From IMG/VR virus record IMGVR_UViG_3300020450_000008: DNA of 64,000 bases; one strand, written 5' to 3'. The DNA comes from a virus (Duplodnaviria; Caudoviricetes). The translations under genes were made by a program, and so were the position numbers. Below are positions 21,641 through 39,060 of the stretch, piece after piece. A model generated the notes under the pieces. It had not been told where the DNA came from. It saw only the letters and a list, made by a program, of their open reading frames with translations, and made no database searches. Each line of letters opens with the position of its first letter. Position 1 is the first letter of the stretch.

Positions 21641-21916
21641 ATGTCAGCTATAGCAACAGCTTTTTTAGAAAGAACCTGTCATATATGCGATGCCGTAAAT
21701 CTTTTTGTATATAAGTTATACATAAAAGCAAAGTGGAGTAAAGAACTTCGTAGAAACTATAATGCGTTTGAAAACCTACTTAGTAAATACGATAGTGAAG
21801 CAGGTTATCATTTAACAAGAATGAACGAAGCAACTAACGAAAAATATCAAAACAAATTAAATGCAACTAAACTAAAACCTTTTAAGTGGGGTTGGGAAGA
21901 TAATGGAGATGACTAA
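21641..21916 (+). CDS. Hypothetical protein
   Basis: 91-aa ORF with GAGGA RBS. Confidence 0.55.
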   Translation: MSAIATAFLERTCHICDAVNLFVYKLYIKAKWSKELRRNYNAFENLLSKYDSEAGYHLTRMNEATNEKYQNKLNATKLKPFKWGWEDNGDD

Positions 21917-21917
21917 T

Positions 21918-22352
21918 ATGAAAAACTTTTATTTAATTCTGATAACAATGTGTTTTATGGGTGGTATGTTTTTATCTGCGAATGCTGCAGATATGTCAAT
22001 AGATATGCTGAACAAACAAGGTAAAGAAAAAATGTTATACAGTGTTAACGTAGCTGAAGTTGACGTTGGAGACACTATTACCTGGCAGCCAAAAGATAAA
22101 GGACATAACGTACAGTTTATCGCTGGTCCTGATGGATGGAAACTTCCAAAGAAGTCTAAGATGAATGCTGTAGTTGAAATTACTTTTGATACTCCAGGTA
22201 TGTATCTTTATCAGTGTACACCACACGCAACAATGGGCATGATCGGCGTTGTAATAGTTGGTGGTGACGTATCTAATAAAGATGCTATTGCTAAAGTTAA
22301 AATTAGAGGCAAAAGTAAAAAGAAACTGAAGAAAATACTGAAAGATATTTAA
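21918..22352 (+). CDS. Pseudoazurin-like type-1 blue copper protein with signal peptide
   Basis: GDTITW, GHNV, YQCTPHATMGM give the His-Cys-His-Met copper ligands; hydrophobic N-terminus ending ANA-A. Confidence 0.88.
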   Translation: MKNFYLILITMCFMGGMFLSANAADMSIDMLNKQGKEKMLYSVNVAEVDVGDTITWQPKDKGHNVQFIAGPDGWKLPKKSKMNAVVEITFDTPGMYLYQCTPHATMGMIGVVIVGGDVSNKDAIAKVKIRGKSKKKLKKILKDI

Positions 22353-23078: not shown

Positions 23079-25610
23079 ATGAAATCTTTTTATACTTCCG
23101 TAAATCGCTATGGCAATTCTATACTTTATCGTGGTTACAACGAAAATGGAGCTGCCATAGCTCAAAGATATAAATTTTCACCTACACTCTATACACCATC
23201 AAAGAAACCTACCAAGTTTAAAGGCTTTGATAGTGGATATGTTGCACCATTAAGTTTTCCAACTATGAGGGATGCTAAAGAATGGCTGGAACAATATCAA
23301 GAGATGGAAGGTGTAAATATATTTGGCACAAAAAATTATATACATCAGTTTATTACAGAAAAATTTCCTGATAAAATAGACTTTGAGCCAAATGCTATCA
23401 ATGTTGTTAACTTCGATATAGAAGTTGCATCTGATTCTGGATTTCCAGTTCCGGAACAAGCGGCATATCCAATCACAGCAATCACAGTTAAATCAAGTCA
23501 ATCTTCAGTATATCAAGTCTGGGGTTGTGGCGAATACAGCTCAGAAAAATGTGAAATAGAACTATATGGAAATCTGATTCAATATCACAAGTGTAAGAAT
23601 GAAACAGAATTACTTGCTAAGTTTCTTGGTTATTGGATAAAAAATTATCCTGATGTTATAACAGGTTGGAATACTCGATTCTTTGATATTCCATACATTG
23701 TAAATCGTATAAAAAATGTTGGTGGTGAAGCAGCTGCTAATAGATTATCTCCTTGGAAATTAGTAAGTGAAAGAAACCTAATGATTGGCGGCCGTATGAA
23801 TTATGGCTATGACATAACTGGCATTCAACAAGCAGACTATTTAGAATTATTTAGAAAGTTTGGATATTCATATGGTCCACAAGAATCATATCGTCTTGAT
23901 CATATCGGTCATGTTGTACTTGGTGAACGCAAACTTTCTTTTGAAGAACATGGTAGCTTATTAAATCTGTATAAAAATGATCATCAAAAATTTATTGATT
24001 ATAATATTAAAGATGTTCAATTAGTAGATCGAATCGATCAGAAGATGGGACTTATTAATCTAGTATTTACTATGGCTTATAGAGCTGGTGTTAATGTTAC
24101 AGATACATTTGGCACTACAGCAATATGGGAATCAATCATTTATCGTAGATTACAGAAAAATAATATCATAAGCCCTATTGATCAAATTAAAAAAGTCATT
24201 TATCAAAATAAATCAAATGCAAATGTTATTGAAGGTGGCTATGTTAAGGAACCTCAAGTTGGTGCACATGACTGGGTGGTATCATTTGATCTAAACTCTC
24301 TATATCCAAACATAATAGTTCAGTCTAATATATCACCCGAAACTTTAATTAAAGATAAATCATTCGGTCATTACGAACAAGATGTCCAACACTATCTTAA
24401 CAGTAAAGATAAAACGTCAAAAGAATATTCTATATGTGCAAGTGGTGTTCCTTTCTCTCATGAAAAACAAGGTATCATACCAGAGTTAATTGTTGAATAT
24501 TATGCAGAACGTACACAAATTAAAAAGAAAATGTTAGAAGCTAAATCTGCATATGAAAAAGAAAAGTCTCGCCAACTTGAAGCAGAAATTAATCAACTTG
24601 AAAATAATCAAATGGCCATCAAGATCTTATTGAACTCTCTTTATGGCGCATTGGCCAATAAGTACTTTAAGTATTTTGATAATGCTCTTGCCGAAAGTGT
24701 TACACTTACTGGTCAGCTTTCGATTAAATGGGCAGAAAAAGCTATCAATCAAGAGATGAATAAAGTTCTTAAGACTGGTAATAAAGACTATGTTATAGCA
24801 ATCGATACCGATTCTTTATACATTAACTTTGGTCCACTTGTGCAAAAGCTAAATCCAAAAGATCCAGTTGCGGCTATTGATAAACTATGCCAAACACATT
24901 TTGAAAAGAAACTTGCTGAGGCTTATGATAAACTATTTAATAACTTAAATGGTTATACACCTAGAATGGAAATGGGTAGGGAGGTTATTGCTGATCGTGG
25001 AATCTGGACAGCTAAGAAAAGATATATTCTTAACGTACATAACTCAGAAGGCGTACAATATGCTGAACCTAAACTTAAGATTATGGGTATTGAAGCTATC
25101 AAATCTTCTACACCAGAAGTTGTTCGTAATAAATTTAAAGAGGCATTCAAGATTATAGTGTCAGGTGATGAGTTAAAAACTCGTCAGTTTATTAATGATT
25201 TTAAAGAAGAGTTTAAACTACTTTCTCCAGAGATGGTATCATTTCCAAGAAGTGTACAAAATGTCGGTAAGTGGAAAGATAGAATACACATTTATTCTAA
25301 AGGTACTCCAATTCATGTTCGTGGCGCGCTTTTATATAATCATCATGTATCAGATCTTTTCCTCGATAAAAAATATTCTCAAATCAGCTCAGGCGATAAG
25401 ATAAAATTTTCTTATCTCAGATTACCAAATCCTATCAAAGAAAATGTTATATCGTTTCCTGACTTCTTACCACAAGAATTCAAGCTTCATAAATATATCG
25501 ATTATGATACTCAATTTGATAAAACATTTATCGAGCCACTCAATCCAATACTTGAAGCGGTTGGGTGGTCAGTAAAAGAACAAGCAACCTTAGAGGAGTT
25601 TTTTGGATGA
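23079..25610 (+). CDS. gp43: Family B DNA polymerase
   Basis: Exo FDIEV, GWN..FFD, YNIKD; pol SFDLNSLYP, KILLNSLYG, AIDTDS; C-terminal TLEEFFG. No intron or intein visible. Confidence 0.98.
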   Translation: MKSFYTSVNRYGNSILYRGYNENGAAIAQRYKFSPTLYTPSKKPTKFKGFDSGYVAPLSFPTMRDAKEWLEQYQEMEGVNIFGTKNYIHQFITEKFPDKIDFEPNAINVVNFDIEVASDSGFPVPEQAAYPITAITVKSSQSSVYQVWGCGEYSSEKCEIELYGNLIQYHKCKNETELLAKFLGYWIKNYPDVITGWNTRFFDIPYIVNRIKNVGGEAAANRLSPWKLVSERNLMIGGRMNYGYDITGIQQADYLELFRKFGYSYGPQESYRLDHIGHVVLGERKLSFEEHGSLLNLYKNDHQKFIDYNIKDVQLVDRIDQKMGLINLVFTMAYRAGVNVTDTFGTTAIWESIIYRRLQKNNIISPIDQIKKVIYQNKSNANVIEGGYVKEPQVGAHDWVVSFDLNSLYPNIIVQSNISPETLIKDKSFGHYEQDVQHYLNSKDKTSKEYSICASGVPFSHEKQGIIPELIVEYYAERTQIKKKMLEAKSAYEKEKSRQLEAEINQLENNQMAIKILLNSLYGALANKYFKYFDNALAESVTLTGQLSIKWAEKAINQEMNKVLKTGNKDYVIAIDTDSLYINFGPLVQKLNPKDPVAAIDKLCQTHFEKKLAEAYDKLFNNLNGYTPRMEMGREVIADRGIWTAKKRYILNVHNSEGVQYAEPKLKIMGIEAIKSSTPEVVRNKFKEAFKIIVSGDELKTRQFINDFKEEFKLLSPEMVSFPRSVQNVGKWKDRIHIYSKGTPIHVRGALLYNHHVSDLFLDKKYSQISSGDKIKFSYLRLPNPIKENVISFPDFLPQEFKLHKYIDYDTQFDKTFIEPLNPILEAVGWSVKEQATLEEFFG

Positions 25611-26338
25611 CAAATTATGTTTTCGATGTGGATGGAACACTTACACGTAGTAGGGGAAGAATAAATGAAGGATTTAGAAGATTCTTCTTAAAATTTATTC
25701 AAGATCATAAAGTATATCTTGTTACTGGAAGTGACTACTATAAGACAGTAGAACAAGTTAGTCGTGAGGTCACTGAATCAGTTGAAAAGGTATTTAATTG
25801 TTCTGGGAATAGTGTTTGGAGAAAAGGTTTAAATATTCAAAAAACGGATTGGAGTATTCCTATGGAAGTAAAGGACTGGCTTAAAAAGAAACTTAATGAA
25901 AGTAAGTTTGATTTAAGAACTGGAAATCATATAGAAGAGCGACCAGGACTTGTAAACTTTAGTACCATAGGTAGAGGCTGCAACTTAGAACAAAGACAAT
26001 CGTATGTAAAGTTTGATAGCATACATGAAGAAAGAGAAAAGATTACAAAAGAATTTAATGATAAATTTAAAGATATTACTGCTCAGGTTGCTGGAGAAAC
26101 TGGGATAGATATTATACCAGCTGGAAAAGATAAAAGACAAGTAGCATTTATGATTGATGGACCTATAACATTTTTTGGTGATAAAATGAAATATGGAGGA
26201 AATGATTATCCATTGAAATTTGCCATAGAAGGTCGTGCTGATTCAGGTGCTATAGAAGTTAAAGATTGGGAACAAACGCATAGATACTTACAACAAATAC
26301 AAATTTTCAGTTTACAAGAAGCTGTCGGTATGGTATAA
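25607..26338 (+). CDS. HAD-IIB hydrolase, phosphomannomutase-like
   Basis: FDVDGTLT, LVTGSD, IEERPGLVNFS, FFGD...GGNDY; ATG 25607 overlaps the gp43 stop. Confidence 0.8.
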   Translation: MTNYVFDVDGTLTRSRGRINEGFRRFFLKFIQDHKVYLVTGSDYYKTVEQVSREVTESVEKVFNCSGNSVWRKGLNIQKTDWSIPMEVKDWLKKKLNESKFDLRTGNHIEERPGLVNFSTIGRGCNLEQRQSYVKFDSIHEEREKITKEFNDKFKDITAQVAGETGIDIIPAGKDKRQVAFMIDGPITFFGDKMKYGGNDYPLKFAIEGRADSGAIEVKDWEQTHRYLQQIQIFSLQEAVGMV

Positions 26339-26359: not shown

Positions 26360-26773
26360 ATGAGTACACATTGGTCAAAAGATATTAGTGATATGCATCA
26401 AAAGTTTGGTGTTAATAAATGGTTTACTAAAAATAAATCAAACAAAGAGATTATGAAAAAATATCTTATGTTTCGAATGCTTATGTTAAATGAAGAACTA
26501 CATGAAACGATGCAAGCTGTAAATAGTGAAAACCCAGAAGAAATAGTAGATGGTTTGATAGACATATGTGTATTTGCAATAGGTACTCTCAATGTTTTAG
26601 AAGTTGATGCTGATAAAGCTTGGGATGCCATACATAATGCAAACATGGCAAAAGAACCTGGCGTAAAAGCTGGTAGACCTAATCCTTTCGGTATGCCAGA
26701 TCTATTAAAGCCAGAAGGTTGGAAAGGACCTGATCATAGCGACAATCATGGAAGTATCAGCGACATTCTTTAA
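26360..26773 (+). CDS. All-alpha NTP pyrophosphohydrolase (MazG/HisE-like)
   Basis: EELHE...EEIVDGLID acidic motif; AWDAIHNANMAK; KPEGWKGP. Confidence 0.8.
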   Translation: MSTHWSKDISDMHQKFGVNKWFTKNKSNKEIMKKYLMFRMLMLNEELHETMQAVNSENPEEIVDGLIDICVFAIGTLNVLEVDADKAWDAIHNANMAKEPGVKAGRPNPFGMPDLLKPEGWKGPDHSDNHGSISDIL

Positions 26774-27735: not shown

Positions 27736-28104
27736 ATGAAAGAATCAGTTAAAGTTTTACAAGAATGCGCTCAAATGCAAACTAAAAAATCAGCTGACTA
27801 TCAAAGCGATGAGTCAAGTGTATTACAAGCAATGCACTATCGTCGTGGCGTTGATACAATACACGATATTATAGTTGGCAAACTTATGCGTGCTACATCA
27901 TTACTTGAATCAGGCAACTCACCAAACTTTGAATCACTTGAAGATAGTTATAAAGATATGATTAATTATGCATCATTTGCAGTATCTTATATGCGTGGTA
28001 AGATGGAAGGCCAAAGACAAGATCGTGATATGTTTAATAAACCAATTGACCCATCAGCGACAGTTGAAATTGTTGAAGAACCAATTGAGGCGCATGACGA
28101 ATAA
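27736..28104 (+). CDS. Nucleotide-modification-associated domain protein (DUF1599/Nmad1-like)
   Basis: LQEC..MQ.KKSADY ... ESLEDSYKDMINYASF helical pattern. Confidence 0.55.
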   Translation: MKESVKVLQECAQMQTKKSADYQSDESSVLQAMHYRRGVDTIHDIIVGKLMRATSLLESGNSPNFESLEDSYKDMINYASFAVSYMRGKMEGQRQDRDMFNKPIDPSATVEIVEEPIEAHDE

Positions 28105-28337
28105 TGGCCGGAGCAATCAATACACCTTTAAGACAACTTATTATGGATTGGAGTGCATGCCAATTGTTAGAGAAAGATCCTGATAATATTGTTCTTAAAA
28201 AACTTAGATCTTGGGAGCATCCTGAAACAATAGAACTAAATAAACTATTAACACAATTTGAAAAAGATGGAAAATATCCAGAACACTATAATTTAGACTG
28301 GGGTTCAATTAATTATGAAGAGTTTATAAAAGAATGA
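28104..28337 (+). CDS. Hypothetical protein
   Basis: 77-aa coupled ORF. Confidence 0.5.
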   Translation: MAGAINTPLRQLIMDWSACQLLEKDPDNIVLKKLRSWEHPETIELNKLLTQFEKDGKYPEHYNLDWGSINYEEFIKE

Positions 28338-28681
28338 AAGCTGGAAAGATATGGGGTCAAACAGAACTAATCCATGCAAATGGTGTTCTAGAGTTTCATC
28401 GCATTGAATATAAAAAAGGCTTTAAATGTTCAGAGCATGAACATCAATTTAAATGGAATGGATTCTATGTTGAGTCCGGACAAATGCTTGTAAGAGTCTG
28501 GCAAGACGATCAAGAAGGATTAGTTGATGAAACTATATTAAATCCTGGAGACTTTACGCAAGTGAAACCTGGCAAGATTCATCAGTTCGAAGGACTTGAA
28601 GATGGAATTGCATTTGAACTTTATTGGGCTGAATTCAATCACAACGATATAGTTCGAAGAACTGTAGGAACAAAAGTATGA
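28334..28681 (+). CDS. Cupin-fold protein (sugar isomerase/epimerase-like)
   Basis: KIWG, CSEHEHQFKWNGFYVESG, PGKIHQF cupin motifs. Confidence 0.75.
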   Translation: MKAGKIWGQTELIHANGVLEFHRIEYKKGFKCSEHEHQFKWNGFYVESGQMLVRVWQDDQEGLVDETILNPGDFTQVKPGKIHQFEGLEDGIAFELYWAEFNHNDIVRRTVGTKV

Positions 28682-28869
28682 TATATGGTTGGATATTGAT
28701 AATGATAACTCTACATCCTGATGGATCATTAGACGGTGGAGCAATAGATTATTTTAACACTTACCCAGAGTGTTTTGAAGTAATGAAAGAAATGTCGGTT
28801 ACAGGTCAAGGAACAGGTTATACCTGTGTAGATGACTATGTAGATATGAGTGGAGATATAGAACAGTGA
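28678..28869 (+). CDS. Small hypothetical protein
   Basis: 63-aa coupled ORF with hydrophobic N-terminus and two Cys. Confidence 0.45.
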   Translation: MIYGWILIMITLHPDGSLDGGAIDYFNTYPECFEVMKEMSVTGQGTGYTCVDDYVDMSGDIEQ

Positions 28870-29282
28870 GAATTGGATTTACCTGCAGTACCTTTGATTT
28901 ACTTCATGCAGGCCATGTCATGATGTTAAGAGAAGCGAAAGCCCAATGTGATTATTTAATATGCGGACTGCAGGTAGATCCAAGTATAGACAGGCCAGAA
29001 AAGAATTCTCCTATACAATCTATTGTAGAAAGAGAAGCTCAATTATCAGCAATAAAATATGTTGATGAGGTGATTATTTATTGTACAGAAGATGATTTAT
29101 GTGATATAATTAATATGTACCCAATTGATATTAGAATATTAGGCGAAGAGTATAGAGATAGAGACTTTACTGGTAAAGATGAATGTAAGAAAAGAGGTAT
29201 TCAACTTTATTTCAATAAAAGAGAACATAGGTTTAGTACTTCAGATTTAAGGAAAAGAGTGTGCGAAAAGACGACATTATAG
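28866..29282 (+). CDS. Cytidylyltransferase, glycerol-3-phosphate CT (TagD)-like
   Basis: FDLLHAGH (HxGH), LICGLQ.D, KYVDEV, G.EY, FSTS motifs. Confidence 0.88.
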   Translation: MRIGFTCSTFDLLHAGHVMMLREAKAQCDYLICGLQVDPSIDRPEKNSPIQSIVEREAQLSAIKYVDEVIIYCTEDDLCDIINMYPIDIRILGEEYRDRDFTGKDECKKRGIQLYFNKREHRFSTSDLRKRVCEKTTL

Positions 29283-29470
29283 ATCTAGGCATAGACTTAG
29301 GCGAACCAGACTTTACAACTAAAAATGATAGGCCAGGATTTATTAGTAGCAGTGGTTGGCCAGTTCGTAGAGAAATAACAAAGTTAAATGACAATATGAA
29401 AATTATGGTCAAGCAAATGAGTAAATTAAAAAAACAAATAAGTAAACTAGAGAAGAAACTAAATGGATAA
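29261..29470 (+). CDS. Small coiled-coil hypothetical protein
   Basis: 69-aa ORF filling the gap, GTG start. Confidence 0.4.
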   Translation: MRKDDIIDLGIDLGEPDFTTKNDRPGFISSSGWPVRREITKLNDNMKIMVKQMSKLKKQISKLEKKLNG

Positions 29471-30170
29471 TATTGTGGAAAATTTAACATGGGCAAAAGT
29501 AAAACATATTCGTCAGCATTTTAGAGATGAATTAAACAAAGAAGTATTTACTATTGATAAAACTGGTCAAAAGACTATTGAAATGATTGGTGCATCTTTT
29601 GTTGCTGATGAATCAGCAATATTTGGTACTCCTAATCGAGAATATATTGATGCAGAAATAGATTGGTACAATAGTAGATCTACAAATATAAATGAAATAT
29701 TTGGAATCACAAAAGCACCACCACAAGCTTGGCAATATTCAGCTAATAAGTTTGGTGAGATCAACTCTAATTATGGCCACTTAATCTTTAGTGAAAAATT
29801 TTATAATCAATATTTACATGTTGTAGAAGAATTAATAAATAATCCTGATAGTCGTAGAGCCGCAATGATTTACAATCGTCCTTCAATATGGCTTGAATAT
29901 AATGAAGACGGTAAGAATGATTTTATCTGTACTAATGCTGTTACATACTATATACGTAATAGAAGATTAGATGCTGTAGTTCAAATGAGATCTAACGATG
30001 TGGTATATGGCTATAAAAATGATTATGCCTGGCAACAATACGTTATGAAACAACTTATTGAAGATATAAATGTTCAAAGACCCGATGATGATCAAGTCTT
30101 TAAAGGTTTTATGCATTGGCAGGTTCAAAACTTACATGTGTATGAAAGGCACTTTGATTTAGTACAATGA
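29463..30170 (+). CDS. gp42: dCMP hydroxymethylase-like enzyme (T4 gp42 family, thymidylate synthase fold)
   Basis: Colinear with T4 gp42 as recalled: DKTG.KTIE.IGASFVADE, GEINSNYG, NPDSRR, DFICTN (catalytic Cys), MRSNDVVYGYKNDYAWQ (Asp at the dCMP-specificity position), LHVYERHF. Confidence 0.9.
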   Translation: MDNIVENLTWAKVKHIRQHFRDELNKEVFTIDKTGQKTIEMIGASFVADESAIFGTPNREYIDAEIDWYNSRSTNINEIFGITKAPPQAWQYSANKFGEINSNYGHLIFSEKFYNQYLHVVEELINNPDSRRAAMIYNRPSIWLEYNEDGKNDFICTNAVTYYIRNRRLDAVVQMRSNDVVYGYKNDYAWQQYVMKQLIEDINVQRPDDDQVFKGFMHWQVQNLHVYERHFDLVQ

Positions 30171-30715
30171 GTCAATTATTTAAAGATCCAAAAAAACCAG
30201 CATTATTTGCAGATATGAATGATCCTGTTCTTAACGCGACATATAAAACAATGAATATTATTGGAGTCGATCCTGAAAAGAAATGGGATGTAAGATATAT
30301 TGAACTAGCCTACAAAGTAAGTGAATGGTCAAAAGATCCATCAACAAAGATAGGATGTGTGGTTGTAGGAAATAAGGGACAGGTATTGACTCAAGGATAC
30401 AACGGTTTTCCTCGTGGTATTGATGACTCAAATGAAAGACTTACAGATAGAGAAACTAAATTGAAATACGTTGTTCATGGAGAAATGAACGCGATATATA
30501 ATGCTTGTTATAATGGAATATCTCTTGAAGGAAGTACCATGTATGTTACTGGTCTTCCAACATGCTCTGATTGCGCCAAGGGTGTAATACAAGTAGGTGT
30601 TAAAAGAGTTGTCTGGCCTAAAGAACTTGAAAATGTTGAAGACAGATGGAAAGAATCTGTTAAATTAACTATGTCTATGTTCGATGAAGCTGGAGTAGAG
30701 TATGAGTTCATCTAA
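30167..30715 (+). CDS. dCMP deaminase
   Basis: SKDPSTKIG, GYNGFPRG, HGEMNA, PTCSDC zinc motifs. Confidence 0.92.
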   Translation: MSQLFKDPKKPALFADMNDPVLNATYKTMNIIGVDPEKKWDVRYIELAYKVSEWSKDPSTKIGCVVVGNKGQVLTQGYNGFPRGIDDSNERLTDRETKLKYVVHGEMNAIYNACYNGISLEGSTMYVTGLPTCSDCAKGVIQVGVKRVVWPKELENVEDRWKESVKLTMSMFDEAGVEYEFI

Positions 30716-31619
30716 TGCTCAAACAAATTTAAGTCGACTTAAATTAGCAGCAGATAAACCTAAAACTGTTGTAGCTTCTGATTGGAAAAGGTATTATAGT
30801 CGGTATGTTGACAGGGCTTTCGCAAGAACAATCAATATTGATACATCTACACGTTGCTTGATGCAATGTCCTTTTTGCTCTCGCCAAAATTTTGCAACTG
30901 GTAAACTGCACATCAAAACAAATAGAACGTTTTATGGAGATTTAACTCCAGAAAATGCTTTACAAATGGCTGATGCATTTGATCGTATAAGTTTTTGTGG
31001 TCAAATATCAGATCCAATATTTCATAAAAATTTATTCTCTATATTTGAAGCCTTAGATCAAGGTGCTGCTATTAGAACACTTGAGTTTCATACAGTTGCC
31101 TCTGGAAAAAAAATGGCTTGGTGGGAAAGAGTTTTCTCATATATGGAGAATGCAAAATATAAAACTGATTTTATCATAGGTATTGATGGAATTGATCAGA
31201 AAACAGCTTCTCATAGAATAGGACAAAACTTTGAAGAAGCATGGGAAGTCTTACGATATTTTGCTGATAATAAAAGAGATAATATAGATATCACCTGGCA
31301 GTTCATACCCTTTTTATATAATGAAGATGAAGTGTTAACTGCGGCAGAAACTGCTGTTTCATTAGGGATAAATTTATTACTTCTCAAATCATCTCGTCAC
31401 GTTGGAGAGTATAAGACAAATACTGGAGATAAAAAATATGCTATAGGAGCTGATTTATACACTCAAGAAGAATTTGAAAAAAAATTTCAAGGTCATTTAC
31501 CATTAGCTCCAACGAAATCATTTTTAAAATCAAATAATGGTATAACAAGTTTTAATGATGGATATATAAAAACAAAGGAAGATATAAAAGAATTAGAAAG
31601 AGTTTTAAATGAATCCTAA
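30702..31619 (+). CDS. Radical SAM protein
   Basis: CLMQCPFC (CxxxCxxC), FCGQISDP, GIDG, WQFI.F.YNE. Confidence 0.8.
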   Translation: MSSSNAQTNLSRLKLAADKPKTVVASDWKRYYSRYVDRAFARTINIDTSTRCLMQCPFCSRQNFATGKLHIKTNRTFYGDLTPENALQMADAFDRISFCGQISDPIFHKNLFSIFEALDQGAAIRTLEFHTVASGKKMAWWERVFSYMENAKYKTDFIIGIDGIDQKTASHRIGQNFEEAWEVLRYFADNKRDNIDITWQFIPFLYNEDEVLTAAETAVSLGINLLLLKSSRHVGEYKTNTGDKKYAIGADLYTQEEFEKKFQGHLPLAPTKSFLKSNNGITSFNDGYIKTKEDIKELERVLNES

Positions 31620-32190
31620 ACCTATTAGTTTTGAAATTGATCCAGTGTGTGTACCATTTGATAAAAATGGAGAAGAAAGAGAACAACAAAATTGCGTAGC
31701 CTTCGGTTCTCATGGTTGGTACATGCCATGCTGTTGGTGTGATCAGTTTCAAGATACTCGAAATAATTATATGGATATGTATTCTAAACATTTACATGCT
31801 TCAACTGGAATTACACCAAGAGAAGTCCTTGAATCTCCAGAATGGCAAAATTTCTTTAAAGTTATTTTTGAAGACCCACAAAACTCTTCTCATGTTTGTC
31901 AAAAATATTGTGGTGTCATAAATTATGATGATGGTACAAAAAGAAATGTCGTAGGATTTACTGATCAAGAAAGAAGAGATATGGGAAAAGATCTTGAATT
32001 TATCAAATTTTTTGAAGAAAATATGGAGAGCAATAATAGTTACCAGTACTGGTGGGATTTTGTTCAAGATTATAGTGGTTGGTCAGCAAGAATGAAATCA
32101 AAAGCGTGGTTTAGATTTGGATATACAGGGATAGGTAGGCTCGCAAAAATTAAAAGACTAGAGGATAATTTAAATGCAGCCAATGTCTGA
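31609..32190 (+). CDS. Cys-rich protein, detached SPASM/twitch-like Fe-S domain
   Basis: C..F...G.YMPCCWC ... CQKYC pattern directly after the radical SAM gene. Confidence 0.5.
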   Translation: MNPKPISFEIDPVCVPFDKNGEEREQQNCVAFGSHGWYMPCCWCDQFQDTRNNYMDMYSKHLHASTGITPREVLESPEWQNFFKVIFEDPQNSSHVCQKYCGVINYDDGTKRNVVGFTDQERRDMGKDLEFIKFFEENMESNNSYQYWWDFVQDYSGWSARMKSKAWFRFGYTGIGRLAKIKRLEDNLNAANV

Positions 32191-32512
32191 TAGTGCAGAA
32201 CTCTTGATGCTCTCAAGTATATTTGCTGATCTTGAAGATGGAGAAACAAGAACAGAAAACATCAAAAGAAGAATAGATCTAATGCAAAAATTTGTTAGAC
32301 CAACACCTACTCCAGCTAAAGTTGTGTCAACTCCATCTGAAAAGATGCAAGAAGAACTTGAACCTATTGCAGAACCAGAAGAAGAACAACAATTTAGTTT
32401 TTATAAAAAGGCAGATGCTGGTTCTGATTTAGTAGAACAACTCAGACAGAAAGAAATCATGAGAGCTGAACTTGCAGCTACTGTATCAAAAACCATGAAA
32501 AAATACAAATAA
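32174..32512 (+). CDS. Hypothetical protein
   Basis: 112-aa coupled ORF. Confidence 0.5.
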   Translation: MQPMSDSAELLMLSSIFADLEDGETRTENIKRRIDLMQKFVRPTPTPAKVVSTPSEKMQEELEPIAEPEEEQQFSFYKKADAGSDLVEQLRQKEIMRAELAATVSKTMKKYK

Positions 32513-32516
32513 ACTG

Positions 32517-32545
32517 TTTACAAACTCTAAAAAATTTGTTATAAT
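32517..32545 (+). promoter_or_regulatory. Early/middle promoter TTTACA-N17-TATAAT
   Basis: Exact motif heading the 32552-38861 operon. Confidence 0.7.
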
Positions 32546-32551
32546 ATTATT

Positions 32552-32926
32552 ATGAAAAAAATATTGATAGTTGGTCAAAATCCATCAGCTCAAAAGCCTA
32601 GAAAAAATTCTACATTTGATAGGTTAGATCAATGGTGTAAAGAAATGAAAGTTGATGATTTTGATTTTATTAACTGTATTGATTCAGTTGGTGATTATAA
32701 AAAGCTAAATATCAATAAGACTAATATAGTAAACTCAACTCAGAATCGTAAAAAGATTATAGCTCTTGGAAACTTTTCTTCAGAAACTCTGACTAAACTT
32801 GGGATAGATCATTTTAAGATGCCACATCCCTCTCCAAGAAATAGAAAACTTAATGATAAAGAGTTTGAGAAAAAAATGATTAATGAGTGTAAAAGTTATT
32901 TGAACGAAACCTGTGAGCTACTCTGA
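32552..32926 (+). CDS. Minimal uracil-DNA-glycosylase-superfamily protein
   Basis: IVGQNPS (motif A) and MPHPSPRN (motif B), IIALG. Confidence 0.65.
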   Translation: MKKILIVGQNPSAQKPRKNSTFDRLDQWCKEMKVDDFDFINCIDSVGDYKKLNINKTNIVNSTQNRKKIIALGNFSSETLTKLGIDHFKMPHPSPRNRKLNDKEFEKKMINECKSYLNETCELL

Positions 32927-32972
32927 TCCAGTCAAATATCTCACGTTAATAAACTGATATAAAGGAGAAAAT

Positions 32973-34268
32973 ATGTCAAAAATTAAAGTCGGCATTGTCG
33001 GTGTCGGAAACTGTGCTAAGTCTCTCGTCGAGGGAATTCAATACTACAACTCAAATCCAGAAGATAAAGTAGGACTTATGTATGATGATATTGGTGGTTA
33101 TACAACTACTGATATAGAATTCGTAGTCGGTTTTGATGTAGATCGTCGTAAAGTAAATCGTCCATTAACAGAAGCTTTAAGAGCCGCTCCAAACTGCGCT
33201 ATGGATCATGTTGGAGAAATATTAGAAGTCGGTGCAAACACTCCAGGCTGTGTAGCTTCAGGAGCTATGGTATATTCTGGACCAGAACTAGATGGTATCG
33301 CACCATGGATGCTTGAATATCCTAAAGAAGTTTCATTTAGAACTGGAGCTGAAGCGGCAAAATCTTATGATGATATTGTAGACATAATTAAAAAGACTAA
33401 AGTTGATGTTCTGATTAATTATTTACCAGTTGGTACAGAAAAAGGGTCTAGATTTTATATGGATGCTGCATTAGACGCTGGTGTTCATTTTGTTAATTGT
33501 ATTCCAACTCTTATATCAACTAAAGAAACTATGGAGATAGAACAAAAGTTTATCAACAAAGGATTGACTATTGTTGGATCTGATATGAGATCCGCTTGGG
33601 GAGCTTCAAGAATGTCAGAAGTACTTCAAGGTGCTATGATAGATTCAGGACTAATGGTTACACAACATATACAGATGAATATGGCCGCTGGTTCTACTCA
33701 AGGTCAAGAAAATATACGAACAGGTAGAACAGCTAATACTGATTTTCTTAACATGGCAGAAAAATCTCGATTGCATAATAAACATGTATCAAAAGAAAAT
33801 GTTTTGAAAGGTCAAAATATAGTACGTAATGAACCTACAGCAGGTGCAACACTTTATGCTGGTCCATCTCTTACAGTATTTCAAAAGCCAGGTGGACAAT
33901 ATGTAGGTAGTGATAATAAAATAGCTAACTTCGATATTGTTGCTTATGGTTTTGGTGGGGCTAGATATGAAATGTCAGCTAGATTATCAGTACAAGACTC
34001 TCCAAACTCTGGTGGTGTTGTAGTATCTGCAATCAGGTTCTGCAAAGTTGCATCTGAAATGAGCATTGTTGGTTATCTTAGAGGTCCATCAGCATGGACT
34101 CAAAAAACTCCTCCACTTCAGTTATCTACATCTGATTCAAAATTTGAATGTGATGCTTTGGCAAGACGTACTCTTACAAAATTAACTGAAGCTCAATTAA
34201 AAGTAAATAAACCAAAAGCAAAAAGTCTACCATATACATTCCAAGCTGGAGAAACAGATTATGAGTAG
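32973..34268 (+). CDS. ino1: Myo-inositol-1-phosphate synthase
   Basis: VGIVGVGNCAKSLVEG, EFVVGFDVD.RKV, DVLINYLPVG, FVNCIP, GSD.RS..GA, NTDFLNM, DNK, DSPNSGGVV. Confidence 0.9.
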   Translation: MSKIKVGIVGVGNCAKSLVEGIQYYNSNPEDKVGLMYDDIGGYTTTDIEFVVGFDVDRRKVNRPLTEALRAAPNCAMDHVGEILEVGANTPGCVASGAMVYSGPELDGIAPWMLEYPKEVSFRTGAEAAKSYDDIVDIIKKTKVDVLINYLPVGTEKGSRFYMDAALDAGVHFVNCIPTLISTKETMEIEQKFINKGLTIVGSDMRSAWGASRMSEVLQGAMIDSGLMVTQHIQMNMAAGSTQGQENIRTGRTANTDFLNMAEKSRLHNKHVSKENVLKGQNIVRNEPTAGATLYAGPSLTVFQKPGGQYVGSDNKIANFDIVAYGFGGARYEMSARLSVQDSPNSGGVVVSAIRFCKVASEMSIVGYLRGPSAWTQKTPPLQLSTSDSKFECDALARRTLTKLTEAQLKVNKPKAKSLPYTFQAGETDYE

Positions 34269-34665
34269 AGAACCTTTTGAGCCTTGGAAAAACATTCCTC
34301 AAAAGACTATAAATTCATATGATATCGATGGCGTTATATACATGGGTGACTATGATGGATTAAGGCCAGGACCTGATGATATCGTAATTACTGGTAGATC
34401 TATTTGTACCGAAGAAGAAACTAAAAAAATGCTTCTTAAAAAAGGTATAACTAATCCTTTATACATGAATTTTAAAGACAAAGACTATAATAATAGAGAA
34501 CAATCTGGATTTCATAAAGGTTGGACTTTATTTCATCTTGAGCAGCTGGGGTATCATATTGGAATCCATTATGATGATGATATGATTCAAATCGAAAAGA
34601 TAAATGAAATGATGCCGCATATTCATTGCGTTCATGTAAAACACGAACTTGTACCAAAGGAGTAA
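34261..34665 (+). CDS. Small HAD-superfamily phosphatase
   Basis: YDIDGVI (DxDG), VITGRS, K, HYDDD motifs. Confidence 0.75.
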   Translation: MSREPFEPWKNIPQKTINSYDIDGVIYMGDYDGLRPGPDDIVITGRSICTEEETKKMLLKKGITNPLYMNFKDKDYNNREQSGFHKGWTLFHLEQLGYHIGIHYDDDMIQIEKINEMMPHIHCVHVKHELVPKE

Positions 34666-34667
34666 AC

Positions 34668-35738
34668 ATGTACAACTATGATTGGTGGTCTTACGATAAA
34701 GACATAATGAAAGATTTTAATCATTTCTTAAAAAAGATTAATACTCGAGCATGTATCAATTATGGTTTTATTGATGAGGAATATGAAAACTTAAATAGGC
34801 ATGGAGACTTAGATCATGGTCTTGGTCGTAATGTAGAATATTTCCACCCTACAATTACTTTAGATGATAGAATGAGATATATTGGTACAGTCATTGCGCA
34901 GCATGATATGTCTGATTTTAGTATTTTAGGCAATGGTATAATATCTCACTTTTATGGAGCACGTGGCGTTCATATGGCAGTTACAGGATCTAACGATCCT
35001 AATGACTGTTTTGTTGATTTTGACAAATTAGCTGATAATGATAAAGATTACCTACAGCATCTTAGAAATAATATAGATAATTCTAGAAAGTTAAAAAAAC
35101 CAATATGGGGTACAACAGAACTTCATACATCAATACAAGCAGCTTCTAGAAATTATTGTAGACAAAAATATGATGACGCTGAAAGAGCATTCCATCCTGT
35201 TGACGTAGTTGATTGGGTTGCATCATTTAGAAATAATGGAACATATGAAGAACTCTTTGCCGCAGATCATATTGGAGAAGCTTATAAAATATTAAGAAAG
35301 TTACCAGGTATTGGAGAATATTACGGATTTCATGGTGCTGCATCAACTAGTGTTTTACCTCAAATGAAATATTATCATGATGATAAATTTGTAGCTCCAG
35401 GACCTGGTGCAGTATATACAATAGGACTTATGTGGCCAAAGGCTCCAAAAAAATATTATGCAGAAGCAATTTACTTCTTAAGAGAAAACAGCGATGAGAT
35501 TGGTCTTACAGAAGATGTTAGTTTTCATCCAGGCGCTTATAACATCGATATGCCAGGTGGAAAAAAGCTTTTTAGAGAAGATCAAAAAACTCTTAAATAT
35601 TATGGTACTGAAGTTTTATCTTGTCAGTTTGGTATATACTTACAGATTAGAGAAGATGCTAAGCTATGTGCAAAACGTCAGGTATCAAGAGCTACAGTAC
35701 TTGAAGATCAAAATACGTTAGAAAGTTTTATGCAATGA
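34668..35738 (+). CDS. aGPT-pyrophosphorylase/amino-acid:DNA-transferase-like protein (HhH glycosylase fold)
   Basis: LPGIGEYYGF helix-hairpin-helix followed by FVAPGPGA, EVLSCQFGIY; ATG 34668 has GGAG RBS; C-terminal TLESFMQ. Confidence 0.6.
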   Translation: MYNYDWWSYDKDIMKDFNHFLKKINTRACINYGFIDEEYENLNRHGDLDHGLGRNVEYFHPTITLDDRMRYIGTVIAQHDMSDFSILGNGIISHFYGARGVHMAVTGSNDPNDCFVDFDKLADNDKDYLQHLRNNIDNSRKLKKPIWGTTELHTSIQAASRNYCRQKYDDAERAFHPVDVVDWVASFRNNGTYEELFAADHIGEAYKILRKLPGIGEYYGFHGAASTSVLPQMKYYHDDKFVAPGPGAVYTIGLMWPKAPKKYYAEAIYFLRENSDEIGLTEDVSFHPGAYNIDMPGGKKLFREDQKTLKYYGTEVLSCQFGIYLQIREDAKLCAKRQVSRATVLEDQNTLESFMQ

Positions 35739-36721
35739 AAGCAATATTAAACTGTCCATTTATTCCAGTAGCAAAAAGAATAGCTTCTCACAGAGGAGCT
35801 CAAGGCGTTATGTATGGCGATATGATAAAACAAAAGTATGGTCATTGTGATGTCAACTTTGGTGGCGAGATTATAGATCATAATCAGTATGATACGATGT
35901 GGGTATATCATGGAAATGATTTTAGTGGTGGATTAAATATGTTTGGTGGCGTTTATGGTTTTCCTTATGTAGAAAATACAGTAAACTTTTCTAAGTTTAA
36001 AGGTAAAATAAAATCAATAGCCATTGACTTTCCGCCATATCATGAATGGATAAAAGATAAATTAGATAAAGCTAAGAAAGACGTACAGCCTGAATGGGCC
36101 AGTGTAGATTTAAATAATCTTGAAAGAATGTATAATGAAGCTGAAACGGTTGATTATCCAAATATGACCGACAAATTAGTCATAGGTGATTCACATTCGA
36201 TATGCATGTATAGACCGGGTTGGACCGTCAATAGCATACCATTTAAAACTTTAAATGGAGCTTTAAAAGAAGGTATTAAAACATTCATACCAAAAGGAAG
36301 TTTCAATCAAATAGAATTGTACTTTGGCAATATTGATATAAGACATCATGTGTGTAGGCTAAATGCTGATATAGAAGAATTGGCTGATAGATATATTGAA
36401 CAAGCAAAAGAATTGAATGCTAAAATATATGAACTATTGCCAATAGAAAATGAATCACGCAAGTTACCACAATCTGGATATTATAAAGGCGAACCTTTCT
36501 GGGGTACATGGCAAGAAAGAACAGATGCAAGAAATAAATTTAATGATTACATTGAAAGCAAATATGGAATCATACGTTGGACGGATAAATTACTAAATAA
36601 AACTGGTGAACTTGATTTTGCATGTATGGAAAAACCAAAGTCAATACATTTAAGTAGAGAGTTCTATCCTCACTGGAACGGAGAGGAAGAGGTAAATACA
36701 TTAGAGGAGTTTTTCGGATGA
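35735..36721 (+). CDS. Putative DNA-modification protein: beta-glucosyltransferase-like N-terminus plus SGNH-like C-terminus
   Basis: YD..WVYHGND...LNMFGG...FSKFKGKI resembles the T4 BGT N-domain (from memory); LVIGDSH, GNIDIRHH, SIHLS are SGNH-like; ends TLEEFFG. Confidence 0.4.
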   Translation: MKAILNCPFIPVAKRIASHRGAQGVMYGDMIKQKYGHCDVNFGGEIIDHNQYDTMWVYHGNDFSGGLNMFGGVYGFPYVENTVNFSKFKGKIKSIAIDFPPYHEWIKDKLDKAKKDVQPEWASVDLNNLERMYNEAETVDYPNMTDKLVIGDSHSICMYRPGWTVNSIPFKTLNGALKEGIKTFIPKGSFNQIELYFGNIDIRHHVCRLNADIEELADRYIEQAKELNAKIYELLPIENESRKLPQSGYYKGEPFWGTWQERTDARNKFNDYIESKYGIIRWTDKLLNKTGELDFACMEKPKSIHLSREFYPHWNGEEEVNTLEEFFG

Positions 36722-37914
36722 GCTTTGCAAGTATAGTGCCACTCATAGGTGGTGAAACAATAGCAATGCAAAATGTATCAGGTAAAAAACCAGAATACAT
36801 ATTAAGCTATTCAGCGTTTGAAGCAAATGATAACCAATTAGTTGAATACTATGATAACAAAGTACCATACTATCATTTAGATGGTAATATGCCAAAAAGT
36901 TTACCAACTGTAGAGTCTGTCAATACTGTTTGTCCTTGTGCTGGATTAAGCAGTCTTTCTCCAGTTGCTGGTACAAATAATAGTAATAATGATTGGATGA
37001 GTAAAACAGCTAAACATGTTTTAGAACATATCAATCCTAAAGTGTTTTGGGGAGAAAACGCTCCAAGACTTGCAAGTAAAATGGGTGAGCCTATAGTTAA
37101 AAATCTTAGAAAAATTGGAAGTGACAATGGATACACATTTTCAATATATAAAACAAAATCAATATTACATGGATTAAGTCAGGTAAGAGATAGAACCTTC
37201 TATTTCTTTTGGAAAGGAGATAAGATTCCACGCTTACCTTATATTCACAGAAATTACGAGCGTATTGAAGATACCATTAGAAATACAAAGCTTAAAAAAG
37301 ATGATCCAATGAATATTCCAGTAAATAGTAAGGCTCCTACAGATAATCCTTTTTATAAGTATGTACTAGAGGAGATAGAAGGTGGTATAACACATTCAGA
37401 ATTTCAAGAAAAAATAGAGCGTAGTACCAATCCTTTAGAAGAAATAGAGAGAGCCGGTATAAAATATCGTACTGTAGGCGAGTGGATGACTAAAAAAGGC
37501 TATGATAGAGAAGCAGAAAAGTGTAAAAGAATGCATGATAAATTAGCATCAGGTGGTAACATAATGCGTAAAACTACTGAAATACCAAAAGATTATATTG
37601 GAGCTTTTGTTGGTCATATGCCAACATCACTAACACATCCTGATGAAGATAGGTATCTTACAGTAAGAGAATGTTTATCAATCATGAAATTACCTGATGA
37701 TTTTATGTTACAAGGTGGTCTTAAAAATCTTAATCATATTTGCCAAAACGTTCCTGTGACTACGGCAGAAGATATGGCCACTAGTGTTCATGCTTTTGTA
37801 GAGGGAAGGCTTGATAACCAGATGATTGATACAAAATTTTTAGTACAAGATAACAAAAATAAGTCATTGGATTATCAAAGAGAAAGCATGCAACTAGATG
37901 AGTTTATGGTATAG
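36718..37914 (+). CDS. C5-cytosine methyltransferase-fold protein with degenerate SAM-binding motif I
   Basis: PLIGG (motif I variant), CPCAGLS (IV), GENAP (VI), QVRDRTF (VIII), RYLTVRECLSIMKLPDDF (IX), QNVP (X). Confidence 0.75.
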   Translation: MSFASIVPLIGGETIAMQNVSGKKPEYILSYSAFEANDNQLVEYYDNKVPYYHLDGNMPKSLPTVESVNTVCPCAGLSSLSPVAGTNNSNNDWMSKTAKHVLEHINPKVFWGENAPRLASKMGEPIVKNLRKIGSDNGYTFSIYKTKSILHGLSQVRDRTFYFFWKGDKIPRLPYIHRNYERIEDTIRNTKLKKDDPMNIPVNSKAPTDNPFYKYVLEEIEGGITHSEFQEKIERSTNPLEEIERAGIKYRTVGEWMTKKGYDREAEKCKRMHDKLASGGNIMRKTTEIPKDYIGAFVGHMPTSLTHPDEDRYLTVRECLSIMKLPDDFMLQGGLKNLNHICQNVPVTTAEDMATSVHAFVEGRLDNQMIDTKFLVQDNKNKSLDYQRESMQLDEFMV

Positions 37915-37922
37915 GAGATAAA

Positions 37923-38861
37923 ATGAAAATATTAATAACAGGACAAGCTGGATTTATAGGTTTCCATGCCGCTATTGGATTTAAAAATGATGGTTGGGAA
38001 GTACATGGTATTGATAACTTCAATGATTATTATGATGTAAAACTGAAAAGAGATAGAGCTACTATTCTTCAAGATTTAGGAATTTCTACTATTGATGATA
38101 CCATTGAAAATTTTAATAAAATAGATTTTCCAGAATATGATTTAATACTACATTTAGCCGCTTATACAAATCCCAGACACGCTTTAAAAACTCAACAACC
38201 TTATATTGATACTAATATTACAGCAACTCAAAGAATAATTGATGTAGCACAAGATAAAGGAACACCAGTTGTATACGCTTCAAGCAGTTGCGTCATGCTA
38301 GGACAACCACTTCCTTGGAATGAAACCGATAGACCACAACATCAAAACAATCCTTATGGTTGGTCAAAGCATGTCAATGAATGCCAATTTAAACACTCAA
38401 CTGTTGTAAGATCTGCTGGATTGAGATTCTTTACGGTTTATGGTCCTTATGGAAGACCTGATATGGCACTGTTTTCTTTTACAAGATCGATAGTAAAAGA
38501 TGAAGGAATAGTTTTATATAACTACGGCGATATGAAAAGAGACTTTACTTACGTAGATGATATTATCCAAGGTATAAAAATAGTTGCAAACAAACTTATG
38601 AAAGATGAAGAAAACTATCATGAGATATATAATATTGGGTATGGTGATCAAGTAGAGTTAATTGACTTCGTTGATCATATTGAAAAGAATCTTGGTAGAA
38701 AGACCGAAAGAAAATTAGAACCAATGCATCCTGCAGATGCAAAAGAAACTTGGTCAGATACTACAAAGCTTCAAGCACTTGGATATAAACCAACAACTCC
38801 TGTACAAATAGGAGTTGCTAAATTCGTTGAATGGTATAAACAATATTATAATGTAAATTAA
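37923..38861 (+). CDS. NAD-dependent sugar-nucleotide epimerase (UDP-glucuronate 4-epimerase-like)
   Basis: TGQAGFIG, YASSS, YGWSK (YxxxK), RFFTVYGPYGRPDMA, RDFTYVDD. Confidence 0.9.
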   Translation: MKILITGQAGFIGFHAAIGFKNDGWEVHGIDNFNDYYDVKLKRDRATILQDLGISTIDDTIENFNKIDFPEYDLILHLAAYTNPRHALKTQQPYIDTNITATQRIIDVAQDKGTPVVYASSSCVMLGQPLPWNETDRPQHQNNPYGWSKHVNECQFKHSTVVRSAGLRFFTVYGPYGRPDMALFSFTRSIVKDEGIVLYNYGDMKRDFTYVDDIIQGIKIVANKLMKDEENYHEIYNIGYGDQVELIDFVDHIEKNLGRKTERKLEPMHPADAKETWSDTTKLQALGYKPTTPVQIGVAKFVEWYKQYYNVN

Positions 38862-39031
38862 TGGCGTTATTATATCTCATATTCATGGGATTCGTTATAT
38901 TAACTTTGCTATGGGTAGGACTACTTATAATAATATGGGTATTATCTATTTCATTCGCTATAGCTTATTATATCGTTTTACCAGTGATAGCAATATTACT
39001 AATACTAATTATGATTGGATCAATTTTTTGA
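38861..39031 (+). CDS. Very hydrophobic 56-aa peptide (not in ORF track)
   Basis: MALLYLIFMGFVILTLLWVGLLIIIWVLSISFAIAYYIVLPVIAILLILIMIGSIF; TAATG overlap with the epimerase stop. Confidence 0.4.
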   Translation: MALLYLIFMGFVILTLLWVGLLIIIWVLSISFAIAYYIVLPVIAILLILIMIGSIF

Positions 39032-39060
39032 TTTACATTTTGATGAAAATATTATATAAT
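39032..39060 (+). promoter_or_regulatory. Early/middle promoter TTTACA-N17-TATAAT (uvsX)
   Basis: Exact motif. Confidence 0.7.

Follow-up and report, generated by a model that had tools for sequence, protein, structure and literature searches.

Why should a phage encode an inositol-forming enzyme directly ahead of genes that act on DNA? The question is raised by positions 32,973–34,665 of a 64,000-nucleotide stretch (the window, by which we mean the whole stretch analysed) from the Caudoviricetes virus record IMGVR_UViG_3300020450_000008. Here a homologue of myo-inositol-phosphate synthase (MIPS; 32973..34268, 431 aa) runs into a small HAD phosphatase (34261..34665, 134 aa). The window derives from a marine T4-like phage encoding a family-B polymerase (PolB), UvsX, a gp41-type helicase and ThyX. 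The closest cultured polymerases to its PolB are those of 'Phage C48C1' (54%) and Synechococcus myoviruses (~48%), and no phage record matched when 32000–39000 was searched for near-identical DNA. We propose, with a probability of roughly 50%, that the MIPS–HAD pair supplies myo-inositol or an inositol phosphate and that this group is grafted onto a hydroxymethyl-pyrimidine in the DNA. Both open reading frames (ORFs) lie where a preceding sequence-only reading had placed them, with an overlap of 8 nt (ATGAGTAG). They are part of a tightly coupled operon on the plus strand, in which the genes for MIPS, HAD, an HhH protein, a 328-aa protein, a C5-cytosine-methyltransferase-like protein and an SDR epimerase succeed one another with overlaps or gaps of 8, 2, 4, 4 and 8 nt. 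An AAAGGAG ribosome-binding site, graded good, precedes the MIPS ORF.

The sequence-only reading had called the first enzyme a full-length MIPS, and homology to Ino1 across the whole length bears this out. In phmmer searches it matches M. tuberculosis Ino1 (1GR0) with an E value of 3.4e-51 and 178 bits over residues 3–387 of 431, and it matches phrog_33138 with an E value of 1.5e-111. Pfam picks up the C-terminal domain only (PF01658, 34.6 bits, cutoff 27), and PF07994 was not detected in the Pfam scan. The N-terminal NAD-binding Rossmann motif of the GxGxxA/S type reads GIVGVGNCAKS, in which the G, G and CA are kept in phage and distant homologues. We take D197, D235, K248, K252, K284, D310 and K346 to be the catalytic residues of M. 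tuberculosis Ino1, presumably equivalent to D320, D356, K369, K373, K412, D438 and K489 of yeast MIPS. All seven are matched by identical residues in the 1GR0 alignment, and the Asp/Lys set is kept in 70 phage homologues and in ~80 distant representatives. These similarities place the protein in the MIPS family, with inositol-3-phosphate as its most likely product.

The further claim that all core motifs are present stands for the catalytic residues and needs qualifying for their surroundings. Together with the copies of RP13, L021, L053, L056 and P0128, the window enzyme forms a phage subclade in which a 15-aa insert, invariant throughout, immediately precedes the catalytic NxD motif, and this same subclade reads GSDMRS in place of the GDDxKS of other members. 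Its score against the inositol-3-phosphate synthase equivalog TIGR03450, a model tuned to actinobacterial INO1, is 202 bits, far under the cutoff of 638. These features raise the alternative that the subclade makes another cyclitol phosphate and that the group on DNA is some other carbocycle. Ari2 (6K96), which forms a five-membered cyclitol from fructose-6-phosphate, offers a precedent and shows significant similarity to the window enzyme (E 4.8e-27, 98 bits); an SDR epimerase also lies in the same operon. We consider this alternative improbable, since every catalytic Asp and Lys is kept and the similarity to Ino1 is much above that to Ari2 (178 versus 98 bits). Moreover, the MIPS copies of phages Moby and Cr30 have neither the insert nor the GSDMRS variant, yet neither copy differs in its HAD partner or in the type of its context.

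The 134-aa partner is a capless (C0) HAD phosphatase that is translationally coupled to MIPS. The small DxDG phosphatase seen previously is real: the motifs DxDGV (D21-I-D23-G-V25), TGR (T44, in ITGRS), SGxHK (K86) and DD (D106-D107) follow in order, and six of their residues (D21, D23, T44, K86, D106, D107) do not vary among 32 homologues. The AlphaFold model is a capless HAD core (predicted local distance difference test score (pLDDT) 94, predicted template-modelling score 0.88). Its best structural matches are Clostridium Pnkp1 (4XRP, VIA Z 12.4), the T4 Pnkp phosphatase (5UJ0, 12.3) and 1LTQ (11.7), with root-mean-square deviations of 2.5–3.1 over 111–116 residues to the Pnkp1 and T4 Pnkp 3′-phosphatase domains (5UJ0: 2.5 over 111); dozens more HADs follow at VIA Z 7–11. 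Foldseek places the same Pnkp proteins at its top ranks (E 2e-3). Sequence searches gave less: no Pfam or NCBIfam model matched, phrog_415 matched at E 3e-4, a homologue on contig L088 matched Acid_phosphat_B below threshold, and a profile of 28 homologues found only chance matches among PDB sequences (E ~0.8). Pfam and NCBIfam scans detected no signature of the inositol monophosphatase (IMPase)/FIG family in this protein or in the scanned neighbours. The model and motifs identify a HAD phosphatase rather than an IMPase-type inositol monophosphatase; were it to act as an inositol phosphatase, it would be non-orthologous to IMPase. Its likeness to Pnkp may be a matter of descent within a T4-like genome, or may signal an enzyme that dephosphorylates a DNA-bound group.

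Comparative genomics strengthens the proposal, already made from the window, that MIPS is functionally coupled to the HAD and that the two have a link to the DNA-acting genes that follow them. We sampled 80 viral contigs with close MIPS homologues and limited each count to loci with enough flank. On the 3′ side of MIPS, the HAD gene is present in 70 of 70 loci (median gap 2 nt), the HhH gene in 49 of 56, the gene for the 328-aa protein in 39 of 45, and that for the methyltransferase-like protein in 25 of 35. The HAD gene also follows MIPS in three cultured phages, RP13 (Ralstonia), Moby (Stenotrophomonas) and Cr30 (Caulobacter). No mini-HAD was detectable after the distant MIPS of contigs L089 and L090, so the strict coupling is limited to the close subclade, Moby and Cr30 and does not extend to every phage MIPS. 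The family is abundant in metagenomes and, at 76–98% identity, forms hundreds of 90% clusters in ocean viromes. MIPS copies remain 76–80% identical between T4-like and T7-like backbones; the pair thus travels as a unit, repeatedly landing among base-modifying genes.

This recurrent siting in DNA-modification clusters is directly observed. The T7-like contig L088 carries AADT, HMUDK_hel, MIPS and HAD genes together with a dUMP-type hydroxymethylase. T4-like contig L053 (5667–11028) has a TET/JBP dioxygenase, AADT, MIPS, HAD, P-loop nucleotide kinase 3 and an HxGH nucleotidyltransferase in a single row, which looks like a complete thymine pathway from the gene content. In Cr30, an AADT (179 bits) is encoded two genes upstream of the pair, and in RP13 an HMUDK_hel protein (161 bits) and an HMUD2 kinase flank the pair, one on each side. 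RP13 DNA is reported to be modified so heavily that sequencing was hindered (PMC12686479). The PolA phage L089, with a MIPS 45% identical, has HMUDK_hel, HMUD1 kinase, AADT and glycosyltransferase genes in the same row. A different setting is formed by the 7-deazaguanine genes (FolE, QueC, DpdA-like, QueE) that surround MIPS in Moby (L002, 7207–12621), L021 (9959–14055) and L090 (6179–8230); the mini-HAD follows MIPS in the first two and was not found in L090.

The window also encodes the supply of a candidate acceptor base. A gp42-type dCMP hydroxymethylase, the source of 5-hydroxymethylcytosine (hmC), lies at 29463..30170 and is 53% identical to T4-like dCMP hydroxymethylases (E ~1e-67). Its ND motif has the Asp of T4-type gp42, and Asn takes its place in the dUMP enzymes of the sister loci L088 and L089; this position distinguishes dCMP from dUMP specificity (PMC13326640). 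Given a gp42 orthologue with the dCMP-specifying Asp, hmC is to be expected in the phage DNA, and a dUMP hydroxymethylase supplying 5-hydroxymethyldeoxyuridine (5-hmdU) is not the window's type. On the same plus strand lie a dCMP deaminase (30167..30715; PF00383, 75 bits), a MazG/PRA-PH-type NTP pyrophosphohydrolase that is a candidate dCTPase (26360..26773; PF01503, 38.8 bits), and DUF1599, 'nucleotide modification associated domain 1' (27736..28104; PF07659, 28.8 bits). Most related loci keep the DUF1599 gene on the upstream side of the hydroxymethylase gene.

Directly downstream of the pair come genes whose families and folds fit enzymes acting on DNA, in keeping with the sequence-only reading. 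The first, 2 nt behind the HAD gene and translationally coupled to the pair, encodes a 356-aa protein of the HhH DNA-glycosylase/AADT fold (34668..35738). It passes PF18723 (36.7 bits), the helical domain of 5-hmdU DNA kinases (HMUDK_hel), has no P-loop and does not match PF18724. Its model (pLDDT 90) adopts an HhH DNA-glycosylase fold and aligns with the PaMx11 gp46 5-PmdU glycinyltransferase (8Z2M) at VIA Z 8.8 over 222 residues; 20 DNA glycosylases follow at VIA Z 5–9, after which scores fall to Z 4. An E-x3-C-Q motif (codons 35610–35612 for Glu, 35622–35627 for Cys-Gln) is invariant in the family and resembles the E-S-x2-C-Q-Y of AADTs, the pattern common to both being E-x3-C-Q-[YF]; we report this resemblance as an observation and not as homology. 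In AADTs the Cys is the catalytic nucleophile (PMC8989533; PMC11472151). In pairwise BLAST, nothing aligned with the Cr30 AADT, and only the GIG...PGPG stretch aligned with the HMUDK_hel protein of L088 (E 0.017). Judged by its model, the 356-aa protein is a candidate group transferase acting on hydroxymethyl-pyrimidine.

The next gene (35735..36721) encodes the 328-aa protein (phrog_17781/13881), in whose family the motifs GDSH and GNID are invariant. These motifs and one atlas lead (Lipase_GDSL, 0.90) suggest an SGNH-like protein; a phmmer search against the PDB gave no match. In Aeromonas T4-like phages, which also carry gp42, the protein is fused to an HhH/HMUDK_hel-like domain. In Aeromonas phage 31 (L007, 7001–9388) this SGNH-like and HhH/HMUDK_hel-like fusion is the 795-aa ORF233c. 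These gp42-bearing phages have no MIPS, which indicates that the SGNH-like/HhH pair works without the inositol module too. The third gene (36718..37914) encodes a divergent C5-cytosine-methyltransferase-like protein of 398 aa (PF00145, 65.3 bits; weak PDB matches only). It keeps the catalytic motifs PC, ENA and QxRxR as well as QNVP, and its motif I is an invariant VPLIGGE. Since the phage DNA should carry hmC, the C5 of cytosine would already be substituted, leaving none free for a methyltransferase, and we regard this protein as a candidate repurposed, hmC-acting transferase.

These three proteins share a C-terminal tail with the phage polymerase. PolB ends in TLEEFFG (codons 25590–25610), and the 328-aa protein ends in the identical seven residues (36698–36721). 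The HhH protein has NTLESFMQ (35715–35738) and the methyltransferase-like protein QLDEFMV (37891–37914), all following an L-E/D-x-F pattern. Across the HhH, 328-aa and methyltransferase-like families the pattern occurs in 24–36 of 31–47 homologues, and in none of 70 MIPS or 65 HAD homologues. By sequence the tail resembles the one with which T4/RB69 polymerases bind the clamp. Given this PolB-like tail, the HhH, SGNH-like and methyltransferase-like proteins appear to be replisome-associated, and its lack on MIPS and HAD makes these two look like soluble small-molecule enzymes.

The proposed route from sugar to base would start with the gp42-type hydroxymethylase supplying hmC for DNA synthesis. 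MIPS with bound NAD+ would convert glucose-6-phosphate to 1D-myo-inositol-3-phosphate (Ins-3-P), and the capless HAD would strip the phosphate from the inositol phosphate, either from free Ins-3-P before grafting or afterwards on the DNA. The replisome-tethered HhH/Cys enzyme could then flip the base, add its thiolate to C6 and expel the 5-CH2 oxygen function; the C5-methyltransferase-like enzyme, with the same C6-thiolate chemistry, may share or take over this role. An inositol hydroxyl would add to the exocyclic methylene, so that the oxygen of 5-CH2-OH is replaced by the cyclitol. The AADT mechanism has been demonstrated with glycine and with a serine hydroxyl as nucleophile (PMC8989533). 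How a leaving group would arise without a kinase is a matter of speculation, with an SGNH-type acyl transfer (an ester) as one conceivable answer. A bolder scheme, which we hold to be somewhat less likely than not, would have myo-inositol ether-linked to the 5-methylene of hmC (of 5-hydroxymethyluracil, hmU, in other phages). Here the work would be done, without a nucleobase kinase, by three replisome-tethered proteins: the Cys enzyme of AADT fold, the SGNH-like protein and the methyltransferase-like protein with its altered S-adenosylmethionine motif. In this scheme MIPS–HAD would be a mobile donor cassette for several unrelated systems, possibly including 7-deazaguanine.

Several observations weigh against inositol as a DNA-bound group. 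We infer its presence on DNA from gene neighbourhood, folds and motifs, not from chemistry, and the link is guilt by neighbourhood, with the 80 loci including many close relatives that do not count as independent. The insert and the two substitutions of the subclade adjoin the MIPS active site, so the product may differ from myo-inositol phosphate. The closest HAD folds work on polynucleotide ends, not on sugar phosphates. An hhalign comparison of the HhH family with three AADTs gave no signal (probability 0.1). A tblastn search of the 64-kb window with three P-loop nucleobase kinases (HMUD1, HMUD2 and Ploopntkinase3) found none, and the only Walker A motifs of the window lie in replication and repair genes; without a P-loop kinase in the window, the known activation step is missing. 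Nor did tblastn with the P-loop kinases, AADTs, TET proteins and glycosyltransferases of sister loci match anything in the window. Finally, Moby, L021 and L090 have the pair or MIPS among 7-deazaguanine genes, and Moby, whose genome is complete, encodes neither an AADT nor an HMUDK_hel protein, so a single acceptor chemistry cannot account for every case.

The Moby genome also suits the view that the pair is a metabolic module unrelated to DNA, which would make free myo-inositol as an osmolyte, divert carbon or provide a precursor of host lipid or surface, and would lie in the replication/nucleotide region merely as one of the accessory genes that phages take up in this plastic early part of the genome. 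MIPS–HAD is biochemically complete alone, neither enzyme bears the clamp-type tail of the DNA enzymes, accessory genes of T4-like phages do cluster between polB, uvsX and gene 41, and the distant MIPS of L091 has no DNA-modification neighbours. Chance residence in such a region would not, however, account for the recurrence of the adjacency in unrelated, differently ordered backbones (T7-like L088, PolA phage L089, Cr30, RP13 and the jumbo contig L038), where the neighbours are specifically base-modifying enzymes. The translational coupling of the window pair to the HhH gene points the same way, and we regard a purely metabolic role as unlikely.

For an activated inositol donor, the sequence-only reading had looked to a HxGH cytidylyltransferase that would act on inositol-1-phosphate. 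The gene exists (28866..29282, plus strand), with HAGH and RFSTS (RxSTS) motifs and a PF01467 match of 49.9 bits. Its top curated matches, both below cutoff, are heptose-1-phosphate adenylyltransferase (rfaE_dom_II, 77.8 bits) and TagD (65.5 bits), with no inositol-phosphate cytidylyltransferase; known inositol-1-phosphate cytidylyltransferases have a different fold. A nucleotidyltransferase is encoded 3′ of MIPS in 2 of 21 loci with ample flank on both sides, and anywhere in the locus in 5 of 80, against 70 of 70 for the HAD, and a coupled phosphatase would remove the very phosphate that such activation needs. The activating step is thus not supported, and the enzyme is probably not part of the inositol step. 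Its neighbourhood offers another role: a PMM-like mutase (25565–26338), a cupin (28334–28681), the nucleotidyltransferase and the SDR (37923–38861) make up one candidate set. The PMM homologue is eukaryotic-type, the cupin precedes the nucleotidyltransferase, and a PMM-like gene occurs 3′ of MIPS in 0 of 34 loci. The combination with a heptose-epimerase-like SDR suggests a nucleotide-sugar route; no glycosyltransferase was recognised near the set.

An activated donor can still be imagined, in which CDP-inositol is formed by the 28866–29282 enzyme, phospho-inositol is put on DNA or another acceptor, and the HAD dephosphorylates it afterwards. The nucleotidyltransferase does share the window's modification region with the pair, L053 and L068 place one inside a TET/AADT/MIPS/HAD/kinase cluster, and transfer before dephosphorylation has a precedent in the synthesis of di-myo-inositol-phosphate and phosphatidylinositol. 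We nevertheless hold this route to be very unlikely, given the rarity of the nucleotidyltransferase across the loci, its best matches to heptose-1-phosphate adenylyltransferase and TagD, the fit of its neighbours to a nucleotide-sugar route, and the lack of any CDP-alcohol phosphotransferase among the scanned window ORFs, neighbours of the pair included. It might at most serve the few phages with the transferase inside the cluster. Since the HAD is found universally and the nucleotidyltransferase only seldom, the module's likelier common product is free inositol; otherwise inositol phosphate would be used directly and dephosphorylated later.

The transcription unit around the pair extends on both sides. 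The sequence-only reading gave MIPS a promoter of its own at 32517. The sigma-70-like site is real and strong as a consensus match (32517..32545, plus strand; TTTACA-17-TATAAT, 11/12 matches plus a TG), and it lies in the 39-nt gap before a UDG-like ORF rather than before MIPS, so the unit probably begins one gene earlier. A second promoter-like site, its twin, stands at 39032, upstream of uvsX; promoter-like sites in the region number 59 against 60.9 ± 8.7 in shuffles, that is, no excess. The gene that opens the unit (32552..32926, plus strand) encodes a small UDG-superfamily protein of 124 aa (PF03167, 31.6 bits; GQNPS and HPSPRN motifs), far shorter than known uracil-DNA glycosylases, and such a gene precedes MIPS in 20 of 72 related loci. 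The unit closes with an NAD-dependent sugar epimerase/dehydratase (SDR; 37923..38861, plus strand; PF01370, 130 bits), present in 5 of 19 related loci; among NCBIfam models it scores best with ADP-glyceromanno-heptose 6-epimerase (117.6 bits, a value below cutoff).

Two further features of the region stand apart from the pair. Between the dCMP deaminase and ORF 32174, positions 30702–32190 contain a radical-SAM gene of 305 aa and an ORF of 193 aa. Contig L010, although 98% identical, has neither of them at this place, nor does any other related locus, and the segment has the look of a recent insertion. The replication region also encodes, at 21903–22352, a copper protein of the plastocyanin/azurin type (PF00127, 55.9 bits); such genes are typical of marine cyanophages.

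The hypermodifications known from phage DNA add sugars, amino acids or polyamines, and our literature search found no link between phage DNA modification and inositol or MIPS, the word 'inositol' turning up only in the names of fold matches. If the proposal is correct, the natural DNA bases would gain a new chemical class, that of bases bearing a cyclitol. An inositol base would be isobaric with glucosyl-hmC and easily overlooked by mass alone, and as a non-glycoside it should resist glycosidases and acid. Such a modification would be widespread in the ocean, with effects on restriction and CRISPR evasion and on the sequencing of marine phage DNA, and its enzymes could be new tools for DNA labelling. 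Three cultured carriers, Caulobacter Cr30, Ralstonia RP13 and Stenotrophomonas Moby, make the hypothesis directly testable.

Among established systems, cellular inositol synthesis by Ino1/MIPS and IMPase, and the synthesis of phosphatidylinositol and di-myo-inositol-phosphate, begin with the same enzyme family, with the catalytic residues kept, and include a dephosphorylation. In the phosphatidylinositol and di-inositol-phosphate pathways the inositol phosphate is coupled first and dephosphorylated after. The phage pair differs in that its phosphatase is a capless HAD of 125–135 aa nearest to Pnkp and not an IMPase, in its viral location among DNA enzymes, and in having no membrane CDP-alcohol transferase. 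Ari2 (6K96) likewise represents a MIPS-fold enzyme recruited to secondary metabolism, and the window enzyme resembles it (E 4.8e-27); Ari2 is, however, bacterial and acts in nucleoside-antibiotic biosynthesis, and the window enzyme is much nearer to Ino1.

The T4 hmC system, comprising gp42, gp56, cd and the alpha- and beta-glucosyltransferases, shares with the window its T4-like backbone, a gp42 orthologue (53%), dCMP deaminase and a MazG-type NTPase, and in both a bulky polyol would be put on hmC after replication, as proposed here. No glucosyltransferase is recognisable in the window, and the group would be an ether-joined carbocyclic polyol in place of a UDP-glucose-derived glycoside. The arabinosyl-5-hydroxycytosine clusters of RB69 and DLP3 (PMC13326640) offer a T4-like phage that encodes the pathway to its donor precursor itself, with a small sugar phosphatase of the HAD type among the enzymes, and donor genes that adjoin a thymidylate-synthase homologue and DNA transferases. 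Those clusters use UDP-arabinose, GT-B glycosyltransferases and 5-hydroxycytosine, whereas no nucleotide-activated cyclitol donor is evident here.

Thymidine hypermodification in phages ViI, M6, PaMx11 and PhiW-14 proceeds through a dUMP hydroxymethylase, a 5-hmdU DNA kinase, aGPT-Pplase2/AADT and tailoring enzymes (PMC8989533, PMC11472151). In the window the base would be hmC rather than hmU, no P-loop kinase was found, and PF18723 occurs without PF18724. The donor genes encode a cyclitol synthase and a phosphatase instead of amino-acid or polyamine tailoring enzymes, and SGNH-like and C5-methyltransferase-like partners are added. The two systems nonetheless have much in common: a hydroxymethyl-pyrimidine would be built in at the nucleotide level and then met by an HhH-fold Cys enzyme after replication, PF18724, PF18723 and PF18747/8 flank MIPS–HAD in L088, L053, L089, Cr30 and RP13, and the AADT of thymidine hypermodification already accepts an oxygen nucleophile, the hydroxyl of serine.

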